A stretch of 64,000 nt of DNA from Escherichia coli (GCF_001677475.2 NZ_CP015229.1); one strand, 5' to 3'. Counted from the stretch's first letter, positions 4,110-28,392 are shown. The notes: generated by a model from the sequence alone, not told the origin. A program made the numbers and translations.

Positions 4110-4266
4110 AGCTTCAGCCCCTTGTATCCGTTAAATGATTCGGCAACAATCATCACCCACCACGCGCGTAATCTCACCCCTGCGCCGTTCTCCCGCCACG
4201 GCGACAACAAAAAGCAGTAATCCCCTCCGCACGCACATGCGACCATGCCGCACAGGGAGGGAACAG

Positions 4267-5376
4267 ATGACCGACACCACCATGCAATTGCTCAGTCAGG
4301 GCACAGACCCCGTGAAAATGCCGGATTTTGATATTCTCGCGGAGGGTAAAACGCTGTCAGGCGTGGCAGAGCGCCTGATGAGCCTGTCACTGACCGACAA
4401 CCGGGGATTTGAGGCGGACCAGCTCACCATCACGCTGGATGATGCGGATGGTCAGTTGCAGCTACCGCCACGGGGCGTGCGCCTGACGGTTCTCATTGGC
4501 TGGAAAGGAGAACCGCTGACAGAAAAAGGCACTTACATTGTTGATGAAATCGCTCACGAAGGACCGCCGGACAGGCTGACTGTTTCAGCCAGAAGCGCAG
4601 ATTTTCGGGATGAATTTAACGTTAAACGTGAGGTGTCCTGGCATGATGTGACCGTTGAGCGTGTGGTATCCGCCATCGCTCATCGGTACGGTCTGAAACC
4701 GCAAATCAGCGAAATGCTGATGGATATCGAAATCGACCACGCCGACCAGACCGAAGAAAGCGACATGTCCTTCCTTACGCGCATGGCGGAAATGCTGGGC
4801 GCAATCACCACGGTAAAAAGCGGCAATCTGTTATTCATCATGCCAGGTGGTGGCGTGAACGCACAGGGCCAGCCGTTGCCATCGTTCGCCATCACACGCA
4901 GCAGCGGCGATCGCCATCAGTTCCGCATTGCTGACCGCGAGGCGTATACGGGGGTGCGCGCCTACTGGCTTGATCTTAACTATGGGAAAAAGAAAAAAGT
5001 CAGCGTGAAACGCCGCAAACCACCCAAACCGAAAAAGGAGAAAAGCAGCAGCCGCGAAGGTGACTATATGGAAGGTGCGGAAGGCAACGTGTTTGTGTTA
5101 CGCAAGACTTATCAGAACGAGCAGGCAGCAAGACGCGCAGCGGCGGCAAAGTGGCAGCAGCTACAACGCGGAGCCGCATCATTTTCCATCACGCTGGCAC
5201 GTGGACGCGCAGAACTCTACCCCGAAATGCATGGCACAGTAACAGGATTTAAAAGCGAGATTGATAATCAGGACTGGATTATTGCAAAAGCCGAGCACAC
5301 CATTGATAACAGCGGCTTTACCACGCAGCTTGAGCTTGAGGCAAAAATCCCGGAATGGATAGCAGAAACAGAGTGA
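4267..5376 (+). CDS. Phage late control / tail protein D (P2 gpD family)
   Basis: ORF track 4135..5376; probable start at ATG 4267 preceded by GGGAGG; motif SLSLTDNRGFEADQLTITLDDADGQL is typical of the Phage_GPD family. Confidence 0.75.
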   Translation: MTDTTMQLLSQGTDPVKMPDFDILAEGKTLSGVAERLMSLSLTDNRGFEADQLTITLDDADGQLQLPPRGVRLTVLIGWKGEPLTEKGTYIVDEIAHEGPPDRLTVSARSADFRDEFNVKREVSWHDVTVERVVSAIAHRYGLKPQISEMLMDIEIDHADQTEESDMSFLTRMAEMLGAITTVKSGNLLFIMPGGGVNAQGQPLPSFAITRSSGDRHQFRIADREAYTGVRAYWLDLNYGKKKKVSVKRRKPPKPKKEKSSSREGDYMEGAEGNVFVLRKTYQNEQAARRAAAAKWQQLQRGAASFSITLARGRAELYPEMHGTVTGFKSEIDNQDWIIAKAEHTIDNSGFTTQLELEAKIPEWIAETE

Positions 5377-5502
5377 ACAACCTCGACGTTTTATTTAATA
5401 TACAAAAGCCTTCTGGACACGGTAAGGCAAGAACAAGGATAGAAGATCCTTTACAGTCAGAGTTACAGGTTATACCTGTAAGCAAAAACAAAGGCATATA
5501 TT

Positions 5503-6261
5503 ATGTTCAGTTTGTTTTCGTTAACTGCCGGAGCAAATGTGCGCTGGCATGATTTACCTGGTCAGGGTATTCCTGTTGTTTTTATTCATGGACTTGGCTG
5601 TTCCTCTTCTTATGAATATCCACGGGTTGTTGCAGATCCTGTATTTGGTGGACAACGAGCGATATTGATAGATCTCCCTGGATATGGATTCAGTGATAAG
5701 CCTAAAGGATTCGATTACAGCATATCCCATCAAGCTAAGGTTGTTATTGAAGTAGTAGAAACCTTAAATCTCTCACAGTTCCATATTTATGGTCACAGTA
5801 TGGGGGGAAGTATTGCGATTGAAGTAGCCAGACAACTACATGAGAGAACAAGAAAGCTTGTGGTTTCTGAGCCTAATTTTCACTCTGGTGGAGGTACCTA
5901 TAGCCGTAAGATAATAGAGAAGCCAGAAGCAGAGTTTATTTCGCATATATATAATGAATTACTGGAGTGTGAAACATCCCCATGGAAAGGTGAACTCCAG
6001 AATGCAGCCCCATGGGCAATATGGCGAGGAGCCAAAAGTCTGGTTGATGGAACCACTCCATCATGGCGAGATATATTCCTTAATCTGTCCTGTTCACGAA
6101 CACTAATTTTTGGCGAACAATCATTGCCAGATAATGATTTCCAGTATATAAAAGAATCAGGAATATCTGTTGCAATAGTGCCAAACGCCGGACACTCCAT
6201 GTCATGGGAAAACCCATCAGCACTGGCCGAAATTTTACACACAGAATTTTATAAAGAGTAA
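5503..6261 (+). CDS. Alpha/beta-fold hydrolase (probable esterase/lipase-type serine hydrolase); AT-rich cargo gene
   Basis: 252-aa ORF; N-terminal VVFIHGLG, nucleophile elbow GHSMGG, C-terminal NAGHSMSW candidate His; codon usage visibly more AT-rich than the flanking phage genes. Confidence 0.6.
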   Translation: MFSLFSLTAGANVRWHDLPGQGIPVVFIHGLGCSSSYEYPRVVADPVFGGQRAILIDLPGYGFSDKPKGFDYSISHQAKVVIEVVETLNLSQFHIYGHSMGGSIAIEVARQLHERTRKLVVSEPNFHSGGGTYSRKIIEKPEAEFISHIYNELLECETSPWKGELQNAAPWAIWRGAKSLVDGTTPSWRDIFLNLSCSRTLIFGEQSLPDNDFQYIKESGISVAIVPNAGHSMSWENPSALAEILHTEFYKE

Positions 6262-23197: not shown

Positions 23198-24589
23198 ATG
23201 AACTTTCCATTAATTGCGAACATCGTGGTGTTCGTTGTACTGCTGTTTGCGCTGGCTCAGACCCGCCATAAACAGTGGAGTCTGGCGAAAAAAGTGCTGG
23301 TGGGTCTGGTGATGGGTGTGGTTTTTGGCCTCGCCCTGCATACCATTTATGGTTCTGACAGCCAGGTACTTAAAGATTCTGTACAGTGGTTTAACATCGT
23401 TGGTAACGGCTATGTTCAACTGCTGCAAATGATCGTTATGCCGTTAGTCTTTGCCTCTATTCTGAGCGCGGTTGCCCGTCTGCATAACGCATCACAGTTA
23501 GGCAAAATCAGTTTTCTGACCATCGGAACGCTTTTGTTTACCACGCTGATTGCGGCGCTGGTCGGTGTGCTGGTCACCAACCTGTTTGGTTTGACGGCTG
23601 AAGGTCTGGTTCAGGGTGGTGCAGAAACTGCACGTTTGAACGCCATCGAAAGTAACTATGTTGGTAAAGTCTCTGACCTGAGCGTTCCGCAGCTGGTCTT
23701 GTCCTTTATCCCGAAAAACCCGTTTGCCGATCTGACCGGAGCCAATCCGACGTCAATTATCAGCGTGGTAATTTTTGCCGCATTCCTCGGTGTAGCTGCG
23801 CTGAAACTGCTGAAGGATGATGCGCCGAAAGGTGAACGCGTCTTAACCGCTATCGATACCCTGCAAAGCTGGGTAATGAAGCTGGTTCGCCTGGTCATGC
23901 AGTTGACCCCTTACGGCGTTCTGGCGCTGATGACCAAAGTGGTTGCAGGTTCTAACCTGCAAGACATCATCAAACTGGGAAGTTTCGTTGTCGCGTCCTA
24001 CCTCGGTCTGCTGATTATGTTTGCAGTGCATGGCATTCTGCTGGGCATTAATGGCGTGAGCCCGCTGAAGTACTTCCGTAAGGTATGGCCAGTTCTGACG
24101 TTTGCCTTTACCAGCCGTTCCAGTGCTGCGTCTATCCCACTGAATGTGGAAGCACAAACGCGTCGTCTGGGTGTTCCTGAATCCATCGCCAGTTTCGCCG
24201 CCTCTTTCGGTGCGACCATTGGTCAGAACGGCTGCGCCGGTTTGTATCCGGCAATGCTGGCGGTGATGGTTGCGCCTACGGTTGGCATTAACCCGCTGGA
24301 CCCGATGTGGATTGCGACGCTGGTCGGTATTGTTACCGTTAGTTCCGCAGGCGTTGCCGGTGTCGGTGGTGGTGCAACTTTCGCCGCACTGATTGTGCTG
24401 CCTGCGATGGGCCTGCCAGTTACCCTGGTGGCGCTGTTAATCTCCGTTGAACCGCTTATCGACATGGGCCGTACGGCGCTAAACGTTAGTGGCTCGATGA
24501 CAGCTGGCACGCTGACCAGCCAGTGGCTGAAGCAAACCGATAAAGCCATTCTGGATAGCGAAGACGACGCCGAACTGGCACACCGTTAA
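23198..24589 (+). CDS. tcyP: L-cystine / dicarboxylate:sodium symporter-family transporter
   Basis: 463-aa polytopic ORF (ydjN). Confidence 0.8.
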
Positions 24590-24592
24590 TTC

Positions 24593-25408
24593 TTATGCTG
24601 GCAACGGTCCGTTTTGTATAGGAGCCGTTGCCTTACTTTTTAAATGTTCCATCGCGGCGATGCATACTGACTCATATTTAAACAGATCGTCAGCGAAAAA
24701 AATGGCTAACTTATCGAAACATTCCTGACTCAATGAATGTGCCTGTAGCGAGAAACTTAAAACCTCATACCCGAGACGTTTTCTAAGTGAACTATCTGGA
24801 ATACTCATAATATCTTCAAGCACACCGCTTCCCATTCCCGGAAGATTTAGTGGATTAAAAAGAAGATTGATATTAAGCATTGATATTATCGAAGGAAACT
24901 TTAGGAGACTCTCATTTTTTTGAATCGCAGCAAAAATGCTCCCGACAGGATGTATATAATTTTGTTCATAGTATATAGTCCTTAAATAGTGAATAACCAA
25001 CCTGTTTTTTATATTGATCAAATTGGTCATTTTTTCGGGTCGGAATTCACAGGTAAAATCCATCCCAACAAAATTCTCATTAATACCTCTTATCCGAAAC
25101 TCACTGCCATAAAGATTATTAATTATCACTCTATATTTAACATTGTCCTGCAGATACGTATCAAAACTAAGTGCTGGCGCTCCTGGCTTTGAGGCATCAA
25201 AGTTAATGTTAGACATATAGGCAATCATATAATTGAAGTTTGATTCTGCTATTTCATCGCAGTCACATTGCCCCGTTGATATAAAGAAAGTGAGTGCTGT
25301 CATAGTAGACTGCAACCTTTCTTTAAAAGAATCGAAAGCCAGGCTTTTAATATTTAAATCACTATAATTACTCTGTATTAAGTTTGTAGAAAGCATCTCC
25401 CGCCTCAT
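24593..25408 (-). CDS. ydjO: Uncharacterized AT-rich protein YdjO
   Basis: 271-aa ORF with AT-rich codon usage. Confidence 0.6.
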   Translation of the reverse strand: MRREMLSTNLIQSNYSDLNIKSLAFDSFKERLQSTMTALTFFISTGQCDCDEIAESNFNYMIAYMSNINFDASKPGAPALSFDTYLQDNVKYRVIINNLYGSEFRIRGINENFVGMDFTCEFRPEKMTNLINIKNRLVIHYLRTIYYEQNYIHPVGSIFAAIQKNESLLKFPSIISMLNINLLFNPLNLPGMGSGVLEDIMSIPDSSLRKRLGYEVLSFSLQAHSLSQECFDKLAIFFADDLFKYESVCIAAMEHLKSKATAPIQNGPLPA

Positions 25409-25684
25409 ATTATTAACAAAATTATTATCTCATTTAAATCTAAGTCACTTACAATGTAAGTTTAAGAGCGACGCCACAGGATGAACTATCAAAAATAGCT
25501 CATCATGATTAGCAAAACTTAACCATTTTAAAATAAATAAACAATTAAAGAAAAAAGATCACTTATTTATAGCAATAGATCGTCAAAGGCAGCTTTTTGT
25601 TACAGGTGGTTTGAATGAATGTAGCAATGAAATACAGAATTTCAGGCCATGTAACTCCCGGCAAAACCGGGAGGTACGTAATCC

Positions 25685-25927
25685 TTACTCAGTCACTTCC
25701 CCTTCCTGGCGGATCTGATTTGCCCAACGCTGGGCGGATTCAGGCACAGTAAACGCCGGTGAGCGCAGAAATGACTCTCCCATCAGTACAAACGCAACAT
25801 ATTTGCCACGCAGCATCCAGACATCACGAAACGAATCCATCTTTATCGCATGTTCTGGCGGCGCGGGTTCCGTGCGTGGGACATAGCTAATAATCTGGCG
25901 GTTTTGCTGACGGAGCGGTTTCTTCAT
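25685..25927 (-). CDS. cedA: Cell division activator CedA
   Basis: ORF track 25685..25948; start placed at MKKPLRQQNRQIISYVPRTEP (80 aa). Confidence 0.7.
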   Translation of the reverse strand: MKKPLRQQNRQIISYVPRTEPAPPEHAIKMDSFRDVWMLRGKYVAFVLMGESFLRSPAFTVPESAQRWANQIRQEGEVTE

Positions 25928-26130
25928 TACTGGCTTCACTAAACGCATATTAAAAATCAGAAAAACTGTAGTTTAGCCGATTTAGCCCCTGTACGTCCCG
26001 CTTTGCGTGTATTTCATAACACCGTTTCCAGAATAGTCTCCGAAGCGGGATCTGGCTGATGGTCTATAGTTAGAGGGTTTTTTGACCAAAACAGCGGCCC
26101 TTTCAGTAATAAATTAAGGAGACGAGTTCA

Positions 26131-28392
26131 ATGTCGCAACATAACGAAAAGAACCCACATCAGCACCAGTCACCACTACACGATTCCAGCGAAGCGAAAC
26201 CGGGGATGGACTCACTGGCACCTGAGGACGGATCTCATCGTCCAGCGGCTGAACCAACACCGCCAGGTGCACAACCTACCGCCCCTGGGAGCCTGAAAGC
26301 CCCTGATACGCGTAACGAAAAACTTAATTCTCTGGAAGACGTACGCAAAGGCAGTGAAAATTATGCGCTGACCACTAATCAGGGCGTGCGCATCGCCGAC
26401 GATCAAAACTCACTGCGTGCCGGTAACCGTGGTCCAACGCTGCTGGAAGATTTTATTCTGCGCGAGAAAATCACCCACTTTGACCATGAGCGCATCCCGG
26501 AACGTATTGTTCATGCACGCGGATCAGCAGCTCACGGTTATTTCCAGCCATATAAAAGTTTAAGCGATATTACCAAAGCGGATTTCCTCTCAGATCCGAA
26601 CAAAATCACCCCAGTATTTGTACGTTTCTCTACCGTTCAGGGTGGTGCTGGCTCTGCCGATACCGTGCGTGATATCCGTGGCTTTGCCACCAAGTTCTAT
26701 ACTGAAGAGGGTATTTTTGACCTTGTTGGCAATAACACGCCAATCTTCTTTATCCAGGATGCGCATAAATTCCCTGATTTTGTTCATGCGGTAAAACCAG
26801 AACCACACTGGGCAATTCCACAAGGGCAAAGCGCCCACGATACTTTCTGGGATTATGTTTCTCTGCAACCTGAAACTCTGCACAACGTGATGTGGGCGAT
26901 GTCGGATCGCGGGATCCCGCGCAGTTACCGCACCATGGAAGGCTTCGGTATTCACACCTTCCGCCTGATTAATGCCGAAGGGAAGGCAACGTTCGTACGT
27001 TTCCACTGGAAACCACTGGCAGGTAAAGCCTCACTCGTTTGGGATGAAGCACAAAAACTAACCGGACGTGACCCGGACTTCCACCGCCGCGAGTTGTGGG
27101 AAGCCATCGAAGCAGGCGATTTTCCGGAATACGAACTGGGCTTCCAGTTGATTCCTGAAGAAGATGAATTCAAGTTTGACTTCGATCTTCTCGATCCAAC
27201 CAAACTCATCCCGGAAGCACTGGTACCCGTTCAGCGTGTCGGCAAAATGGTGCTCAATCGCAACCCGGATAACTTCTTTGCTGAAAATGAACAGGCGGCT
27301 TTCCATCCTGGGCATATCGTGCCGGGACTGGACTTCACCAACGATCCGCTGTTGCAGGGACGTTTGTTCTCCTATACCGATACACAAATCAGTCGTCTTG
27401 GTGGGCCGAATTTCCATGAGATTCCGATTAACCGCCCGACCTGCCCTTACCATAATTTCCAGCGTGATGGCATGCATCGTATGGGGATCGACACTAACCC
27501 GGCGAATTATGAACCGAACTCGATCAACGATAACTGGCCGCGCGAAACACCACCGGGGCCGAAACGCGGCGGTTTTGAATCATACCAGGAGCGCGTGGAA
27601 GGCAATAAAGTTCGCGAGCGCAGCCCATCGTTTGGCGAATATTATTCCCATCCGCGTCTGTTCTGGCTAAGTCAGACGCCATTCGAGCAGCGCCATATTG
27701 TCGATGGTTTCAGTTTTGAGTTAAGCAAAGTCGTTCGGCCGTATATTCGTGAGCGCGTTGTTGACCAGCTGGCGCATATTGATCTCACTCTGGCCCAGGC
27801 GGTGGCGAAAAATCTCGGTATCGAACTGACTGACGACCAGCTGAATATCACCCCACCTCCGGACGTCAACGGTCTGAAAAAGGATCCATCCTTAAGTTTG
27901 TACGCCATTCCTGACGGTGATGTGAAAGGTCGCGTGGTAGCGATTTTACTTAATGATGAAGTGAGATCGGCAGACCTTCTGGCCATTCTCAAGGCCCTGA
28001 AGGCCAAAGGTGTTCATGCCAAACTGCTCTACTCCCGAATGGGTGAAGTGACTGCGGATGACGGTACGGTGTTGCCTATAGCCGCTACCTTTGCCGGTGC
28101 GCCTTCGCTGACGGTCGATGCGGTTATTGTCCCTTGCGGCAATATCGCGGATATCGCTGACAACGGCGATGCCAACTACTACCTGATGGAAGCCTACAAA
28201 CACCTTAAACCGATTGCGCTGGCGGGAGACGCACGCAAGTTTAAAGCCACAATCAAGGTCGCTGACCAGGGTGAAGAAGGGATTGTGGAAGCTGACAGCG
28301 CCGACGGTAGTTTTATGGATGAACTGTTAACGCTGATGGCAGCACACCGCGTGTGGTCACGCATTCCTAAGATTGACAAAATTCCGGCGTAA
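26131..28392 (+). CDS. katE: Catalase HPII (large-subunit monofunctional catalase)
   Basis: 753-aa ORF; catalase motifs RERIPERVVHARG-like, FDHERIPER, and C-terminal flavodoxin-like domain. Confidence 0.95.

Follow-up and report, generated by a model that had tools for sequence, protein, structure and literature searches.

A small AT-rich islet with the orphan gene ydjO between tcyP and cedA of Escherichia coli: probably old, acquired and coated by H-NS

In many Escherichia coli genomes the two convergent core genes tcyP and cedA are separated by about 1.1 kb of DNA that differs in base composition from everything around it and holds a single gene, ydjO. This raises the questions of where the stretch came from, whether ydjO is a real gene, and whether it is kept silent by H-NS, as an initial annotation of the locus had expected for an acquired gene of such composition. 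The window referred to below is the whole 64,000-nt stretch of an E. coli chromosome (NZ_CP015229.1) that was analysed. It is an E. coli-type chromosome segment in which the gene order ydjM-tcyP-ydjO-cedA-katE, and also the gene names, match those of K-12 MG1655 and C600. We consider it likely that the stretch is a small, old, acquired AT-rich islet with an orphan gene, and that it is coated by H-NS and largely silent. The composition, the polarity of the insertion, the selection on the coding sequence, the absence of homologs and a conserved upstream block were computed here, and the occupancy by H-NS is taken from the K-12 literature. The genes and the insert are as follows.

22463-23065, plus strand: ydjM
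23198-24589, plus strand: tcyP (also called ydjN), with its stop codon ending at 24589
24590-25684, no strand: the AT-rich insert from the tcyP stop to the cedA stop, 1095 bp, in the place of a 46-bp spacer in empty-site genomes
24593-25408, minus strand: longest open reading frame of ydjO, 271 codons
24593-25396, minus strand: ydjO coding sequence with the RefSeq-type start, 267 aa, the frame being open up to an upstream ATG at 25408
25397-25684, minus strand: 5' region of ydjO, identical with the cedA-ydjO spacer, 33% GC
25685-25948, minus strand: cedA
26131-28392, plus strand: katE

The stretch under study, 24593-25684, thus comprises ydjO and the entire ydjO-cedA spacer. It corresponds to ydjO (b1730, "protein YdjO") of K-12, which is the same gene at the same locus tcyP-ydjO-cedA-katE, with 95% amino acid identity and 96.2% nucleotide identity over 24593-25684. 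The length of 271 aa given in the initial annotation holds for the longest open reading frame. In K-12 MG1655 and C600 the RefSeq start is the second ATG (25396 in the window), giving 267 aa; a GAGG lies 6 nt 5' of this ATG, and its position is common to a divergent E. coli allele and to E. albertii, so that the likely product has 267 aa. At the other end, the stop codons of tcyP and ydjO are only 3 nt apart, and expression data for ydjO that are not strand-specific may therefore reflect read-through from tcyP. As an example, ydjO has been listed beside ydjN among serum-responsive genes (PMC4145685). Other mentions of ydjO are of SNPs correlated with H2 production in the LTEE and of a synonymous SNP in a lactate-evolved line; they shed no light on function.

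The GC content at 24593-25684 is 35.1%, compared with 50.4% over the window (36.2% in the ydjO reading frame, 32-33% in the upstream spacer). Windows of the same length have a mean GC of 0.503 with a standard deviation of 0.049, which puts the region at a z of about -3.1. It is the lowest-GC stretch of 1092 nt in the 64 kb, and the sliding windows that are equally low (0.14%) all overlap it. GC3 is 33.6% in ydjO, compared with 52.7% in ydjM, 58.2% in tcyP, 53.4% in cedA and 52.4% in katE. The frequency of TpA and the density of A/T tracts (runs of at least 4 A or T) are both about twice the window average. The drop in GC is sharp: it begins where tcyP stops (24589) and is over at about 25640-25684, i.e. 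0-45 bp before the cedA stop. The description of ydjO and its 5' region as markedly AT-rich is therefore borne out by composition statistics that do depart from the average, while the "GC-rich core context" ascribed to the surroundings is overstated, as the flanks have ordinary E. coli composition (50-58% GC).

The window contains other AT-rich DNA. An intact 632-aa open reading frame at 15359-17257, with a ShET2-enterotoxin N-terminal domain (E 5e-45) and ankyrin repeats, lies in a second AT-rich stretch (~37% GC) adjoining thrS; in K-12 this gene (arpB) is a pseudogene. The region 4135-6261 looks like a prophage remnant with cargo: a 413-aa open reading frame there has a Phage_GPD baseplate-hub domain (E 7e-17), and the frame after it, at 5503-6261, is AT-rich (~37% GC) and encodes an alpha/beta-hydrolase.

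Composition aside, the distribution of the insert bears on its origin. The 1092-nt ydjO region is present in 4300 of the 5426 complete E. coli genomes, with sensitive and fast searches in agreement, and it is absent from 1126-1128 of them, or about 21%. The empty site was searched for with the window sequence from which 24593-25639 had been excised, a match in one piece being counted as empty. Such a match was found in 1128 of the 5426 genomes, including SE15 and APEC O1, both phylogroup B2 strains. In SE15 only 46 bp separate the tcyP stop from the cedA stop, and they form a bidirectional terminator of the classical kind. A scan of the genome collection with CedA as the query gave 54 species representatives for comparison of the spacers. 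E. whittamii and three more non-coli Escherichia genomes have a spacer of ~50 bp with the same hairpin as SE15 (AAAAAACGCCTGTCGGGATGACAGGCGTTTT), spacer and terminator being orthologous to those of SE15. A short tcyP-cedA spacer is found in about 45 other Enterobacteriaceae; Citrobacter, Salmonella, Enterobacter, Kluyvera, Leclercia and others have convergent spacers of 54-110 bp with analogous terminators. Taken across ydjO-less E. coli, other Escherichia and the outgroup genera, the short-spacer sites hold 46-110 bp. Because orthologous short spacers occur in other Escherichia and outgroup genera, the empty site appears to be the ancestral state and ydjO an insertion; in this comparison, the 1095 bp from one stop codon to the other are best read as an insertion that displaced an old bidirectional terminator. 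Horizontal acquisition, as proposed in the initial annotation, is thus supported by an ancestral empty site in 1128 of 5426 E. coli genomes and in outgroups, and also by published work, since ydjO was predicted to be foreign by Nakamura and by Lawrence & Ochman, according to the tabulation in PMC3661553.

Xenogeneic DNA is recognised by an AT content above the host average over several hundred bp and by absence from relatives at a conserved locus with an ancestral empty site, and both are found for the ydjO insert. A donor or a mobility signature (integrase, IS, tRNA site, direct repeats), which is a supportive and not a defining feature of such DNA, is not seen here. At the insert there is no mobility gene, no inverted repeats, no target-site duplication and no flanking repeats beyond chance, and a donor or relative of ydjO was found neither in phage genomes, true plasmids and IMG/VR viral contigs nor among 1.84 billion protein representatives. 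Three matches to "plasmids" are in fact mislabelled chromosomes of 4.8-4.9 Mb. E. coli HH97 was rejected as the model for a ydjO-less genome in favour of SE15, since its site contains a G-rich filler found only in HH97 and HH45. This filler sits exactly at the ydjO position (HH97, L001:3882-4052; HH45, L004:1391-1612), is 170-220 bp long with GGGGGGG runs and a tract of 13-14 A, adjoins a katE that is annotated as truncated, and has no match in any other complete E. coli genome. Both genomes are described as "pre-treated sample", Ontario, and the filler reflects either faulty assembly or an unusual rearrangement.

Outside E. coli, traces of the insert are found in two further places. Escherichia sp. 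MOD1-EC7003 has kept both ends of the insert and lacks the middle 893 bp, and so has a remnant of ydjO. Its junction, GACGATCTATT|TAAATATGAG (L005), falls exactly in a short direct repeat of the intact insert.

24681-24692 (left copy) and 25574-25585 (right copy), no strand: 12-nt direct repeat AACAGATCGTCA / AATAGATCGTCA, the endpoints of the deletion in MOD1-EC7003

Recombination between the two repeat copies, i.e. a microhomology deletion, explains the 893-bp loss. The second case is the type strain of E. albertii (NBRC 107761), in which an AT-rich open reading frame (31-33% GC) lies directly downstream of cedA and runs off the end of the contig. A metagenome contig extends this frame, so that 192 codons can be aligned to YdjO, with 34% amino acid identity, a dN of 0.65 and a dS of about 1.4; CedA is 92% identical between the window and the E. 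albertii genome. In the metagenome copy one nucleotide is inserted, and a search of 5.8 billion clusters gave no full-length YdjO of the E. albertii type, only a 79-aa fragment, so that this copy may be decaying. The diverged syntenic copy in E. albertii shows that the acquisition is old and wider than E. coli.

The flanking gene cedA gives a further hint on how the insert has spread.

25685-25702: 3' end of cedA, with the last five codons co-varying with the ydjO insert

Wherever ydjO or its remnant is present, i.e. in non-B2 E. coli with the insert, in MOD1-EC7003 and in E. albertii, the C-terminal codons of cedA read GEV[T/A]E*, and in all empty-site Escherichia (SE15, E. whittamii and others) they read NEVEE*. 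As the end of cedA co-varies with the insert, the boundary of haplotype recombination lies inside cedA, and the pattern points to one haplotype spread by homologous recombination rather than to many independent clean losses. These distributions also bear on the use of YdjO as a marker. YahL, YdjO and YjfZ have been described as three "conserved signature proteins" of E. coli/Shigella (PMC11057252), and our searches likewise find no homolog of YdjO outside Escherichia. YdjO is, however, neither universal, as it is absent from ~21% of complete E. coli genomes, nor strictly exclusive, given the E. albertii copy and the remnant in MOD1-EC7003.

Whether ydjO is a gene at all can be judged from its reading frame and from its alleles. 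At the composition of ydjO (35% GC) the stop probability is 7% per codon and the frame is open over 267 codons; the chance of an open frame of 271 codons is about 1.5e-9. Among five ydjO alleles the Nei-Gojobori dN/dS is 0.13-0.28, which indicates that ydjO is under purifying selection, weaker than that on tcyP (dN/dS 0.00-0.03). With these values and the low chance of an open frame of this length, ydjO is a genuine coding gene. Full-length YdjO of cluster P0001 is represented by 8291 sequences. Damaged alleles are also common: WP4 and EC6 carry Q261stop, the gene is frameshifted in an O157:H7 strain, SLK172 has an IS1 within it, and the allele P0006 has an in-frame deletion. Two clusters of truncated proteins end at a homopolymer.

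24915-24921, minus strand: A7 homopolymer on the coding strand, ydjO codons 160-162

These clusters, P0012 with 2273 sequences and P0013 with 149, carry +1 or -1 frameshifts and are all from Logan assemblies; either true slippage or errors of sequencing could account for them.

The intact alleles are diverged to very different degrees. Between the window and K-12, dS is 0.15 in ydjO and 0.07 in tcyP, and in a central segment the window has ENFVGMDFTCEF, which is the type of P0001, while K-12 has KDFIGMDVTSVF. For the divergent allele P0005/L061, compared with the window or K-12, dS is 0.44-0.52 over the whole of ydjO and reaches 0.76-0.93 in codons 1-160, against 0.06-0.11 in tcyP. The divergent patch of L061 runs from ~75 nt upstream of the ATG to near codon 160, and its cedA-proximal spacer and the C-terminal 100 codons of its ydjO are nearly identical in these comparisons. 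With a patch so bounded and the rest so similar, the ydjO alleles are mosaics formed by recombination, in which imported segments are much older than the rest. The allele of the window is itself rare: its best match among the 5426 complete E. coli genomes has 97.4% nucleotide identity and carries an IS1 insertion, compared with up to 99.2% for the flanking ydjM-tcyP.

The protein gives few clues to its function. YdjO has a mass of 30.3 kDa and a pI of 5.4, is acidic and soluble, and lacks a hydrophobic segment of the kind expected for a membrane span or a signal peptide. Searches of Pfam, NCBIfam, PADLOC and PHROG gave no family match (one PHROG match at E = 0.41, 0 PADLOC families), which agrees with the earlier remark that the product has no recognisable catalytic motif. 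The matches at E <= 1 in Pfam consist of a chance match to STATB_N alone, and a sequence-profile search of the PDB gave chance matches to L-selectin at E > 1 and nothing else. When 1.84 billion representatives were searched exhaustively with phmmer, nothing but E. coli sequences and one artefact came back. The latter, P0031, looked like a distant homolog (26% identity, E 1e-34). It derives from a Logan contig (L066, SRR33321306, 2042 nt) whose sequence is that of the cedA-ydjO-tcyP locus after exchange of every A for G and every G for A, C and T being kept, and such a contig could mislead homology searches. Paralogy among YdjO, YahL and YjfZ, which have similar lengths and are all E. coli-specific, is rejected by BLASTP, with E = 2.0 for YdjO against YjfZ (DUF2686) and 0.23 against YahL. 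An AlphaFold2 model from an alignment of 7 sequences is poor (pLDDT 52, pTM 0.43). Only residues ~20-125 reach a pLDDT of 63-73, forming a long helix, a short helix, five antiparallel strands and another long helix; the C-terminal 140 residues are helical at low confidence, and Foldseek with this model against BFVD gave TM <= 0.22. The check by remote homology and structure prediction that the initial annotation had proposed gave no homolog outside Escherichia, no family match and no confident fold. Our best guess would make YdjO a protein-binding factor without enzymatic activity, composed of an alpha/beta domain at the N-terminus and a helical part at the C-terminus.

Regarding H-NS, the region has been noted before in K-12. 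The ydjO/cedA spacer of K-12 is promoter island 1811053_320, one of 78 such islands (PMC3661553 Table 1; Panyukov & Ozoline 2013), and in the same table it is associated with predicted foreign genes. Its entry there carries the code "K" for binding by H-NS, reporting at second hand the ChIP data of Kahramanoglou and of Oshima in K-12. The island is not placed in a genomic island by IslandViewer or GIST (columns A and B of PMC3661553 are empty). By genomic SELEX, a constitutive RpoD promoter ATGACT-16-AATAAT has been assigned to K-12 ydjO, with "HNS" marked in the same ydjO/cedA spacer (PMC3946193), and a SELEX peak of the RpoS holoenzyme has been reported in this spacer (PMC5493296). The counterpart in the window is as follows.

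25421-25448, minus strand: sigma-70-like promoter GTGACT-16-AATAAT, a consensus match only, counterpart of the K-12 SELEX promoter ATGACT-16-AATAAT

A scan of 23000-27000 gave seven promoter-like sites. The AT-rich insert holds five of them (25046-25448), four of these five on the ydjO strand and two of the four in the cedA-ydjO spacer. The total over the 4 kb is not above that of shuffled sequence (7 sites, 6.3 expected in this crude consensus count), and as the scan is a simple search for hexamer pairs and not the PlatProm of PMC3661553, it is only suggestive. Of the properties of promoter islands given in PMC3661553, the insert shows the AT-richness and a suggestive clustering of promoter-like hexamer pairs; the class is defined by unusually dense overlapping sites over 300 bp or more together with little transcription, and the K-12 counterpart is listed in it. 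The insert shows no enrichment of the high-affinity H-NS 10-mer TCGATAAATT when up to 2 mismatches are allowed (3 sites, ~1.6 expected), so that binding would rest on general AT-richness. A search of the literature that mentions ydjO gave no result on its derepression in hns mutants; that ydjO is silenced by H-NS, as the initial annotation had it, we infer from composition and reported occupancy. Like the H-NS-silenced acquired genes of bgl, proU, LEE and the SPI loci, ydjO combines AT-rich DNA in a core of average GC with patchy distribution and reported H-NS occupancy. Unlike them, the insert is very small (1.1 kb, one gene) and has neither mobility machinery nor an enriched H-NS 10-mer. The reading of ydjO as AT-rich, foreign and H-NS-bound is already known for K-12.

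The insert contains further sequence elements.

25484-25503, minus strand: 20-nt block ATGAGCTATTTTTGATAGTT, 88-107 nt upstream of the ydjO ATG
24600-24632, plus strand: hairpin GGCAACGGUCC...GGAGCCGUUGCC followed by the U-rich tail UUACUUUUUAAAU, -18.7 kcal/mol, z -2.75
25651-25677, minus strand: hairpin CCUCCCGG-UUUUG-CCGGGAG just downstream of cedA, -23.2 kcal/mol, z -3.7

No base of the 20-nt block differs among the fetched E. coli alleles or in E. albertii, whereas the DNA around it is only about half identical, and the block holds an imperfect inverted repeat, GA(A/G)CTAT-N5-ATAGCTC. This makes it a good candidate for a regulator-binding site, possibly that of a counter-silencer. The first of the two hairpins sits within the final 14 codons of ydjO and may act as a terminator-like element for tcyP. 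The second, on the cedA side, has no U-run and occupies the place of the ancestral bidirectional terminator. No RNA family of Rfam was found in 24000-26400.

Putting these elements together, a course of events can be proposed that is consistent with the likely reading given at the outset. An AT-rich islet of 1095 bp would have taken the place of the ancestral bidirectional terminator at the tcyP-cedA junction in part of Escherichia, bringing with it one protein-coding orphan gene, ydjO, and probably its own promoter region. The composition of the islet (33-36% GC, with doubled TpA and A/T-tract density) would lead to coating by H-NS, which in turn would keep the ydjO promoter and the promoter-island sites largely silent. 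Expression of ydjO would then need a counter-silencer, possibly acting at the 20-nt block ~90 nt upstream of the start.

Other explanations differ from this one in the origin of ydjO or in its nature. One is that ydjO is an ancient gene of the genus, inherited from the ancestor that E. coli shares with E. albertii and lost repeatedly in B2, E. whittamii and other clades, in which case its AT-richness and rapid divergence would come from weak selection and mutational bias and not from foreign origin. This would fit the syntenic AT-rich ortholog in the E. albertii type strain and the one metagenome contig (34% amino acid identity over 192 codons), and losses do occur, as seen in the 893-bp deletion remnant of MOD1-EC7003, the IS1 insertion, the frameshift and the nonsense alleles. 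The empty sites, however, contain no remnant, have the orthologous terminator and the cedA end "NEVEE" in common, and have the same spacer layout as the outgroups. All ydjO haplotypes have the cedA end "GEV[T/A]E", as predicted by the transfer of one haplotype and not by clean deletions, and there is no trace of ydjO outside Escherichia. We regard repeated loss of an ancient gene as unlikely. Less likely still is the view that the reading frame is non-functional, being a decaying pseudogene or a spurious frame in AT-rich junk DNA. The lack of any known domain, the poor AlphaFold model and the failure to find a full-length protein of the E. albertii type among 5.8 billion clusters are what this view would expect. 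Against it stand a dN/dS of 0.13-0.28 in every informative pair of alleles, including pairs with a dS of 0.44-0.93, 267 codons that stay open where each has a 7% chance of being a stop, a full-length cluster with 8291 sequences, and the conservation of the start position and the upstream element. This makes a non-functional frame highly improbable.

A functional gene need not be a quiet one, and ydjO could be a conflict-type gene (phage defence, anti-defence, or of a toxin/immunity-like kind) that is under diversifying or balancing selection and exchanged between lineages. The dS of ydjO, at 0.15-0.52 (0.76-0.93 in codons 1-160 of L061) compared with 0.06-0.11 in tcyP, the mosaic structure of the alleles, the contrast between YdjO and CedA in identity to E. 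albertii (34% and 92%) and the binding of H-NS, which is shared with many accessory loci, would all agree with this. Yet no match is found in PADLOC or PHROG, the gene stands alone without partners, outside a defence island and between housekeeping flanks, dN/dS is well below 1, and the high dS could come from patches imported from other Escherichia lineages; there is very little chance, in our judgement, that ydjO is of this type. A broader idea, which we likewise doubt while giving it somewhat more room, is that ydjO is a genus-restricted, fast-evolving polymorphism, in presence and absence as well as in multiple alleles, that moves between E. coli, E. albertii and the cryptic clades by recombination in the cedA and tcyP flanks, with a dedicated conserved operator overriding the silencing by H-NS. 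If this were true, the pattern would be one typical of conflict or niche genes, and YdjO would be a new, structurally unclassified effector.

Taking ydjO as an old acquired islet under H-NS, the locus is a textbook-style, tiny xenogeneic islet whose main features have been published for K-12, and it will not surprise a specialist. What is added here is modest, namely the ortholog in E. albertii with the spread between species, the deep divergence of the ydjO alleles, and the conserved 20-nt block. In practice, ydjO is in use as an "E. coli/Shigella-specific" qPCR marker, and yet it is missing in about one fifth of complete E. coli genomes, including SE15 and APEC O1. For the biology of the genus, YdjO, being taxonomically restricted and under purifying selection, may serve as a small and clean case of how an orphan gene is maintained and regulated under H-NS.
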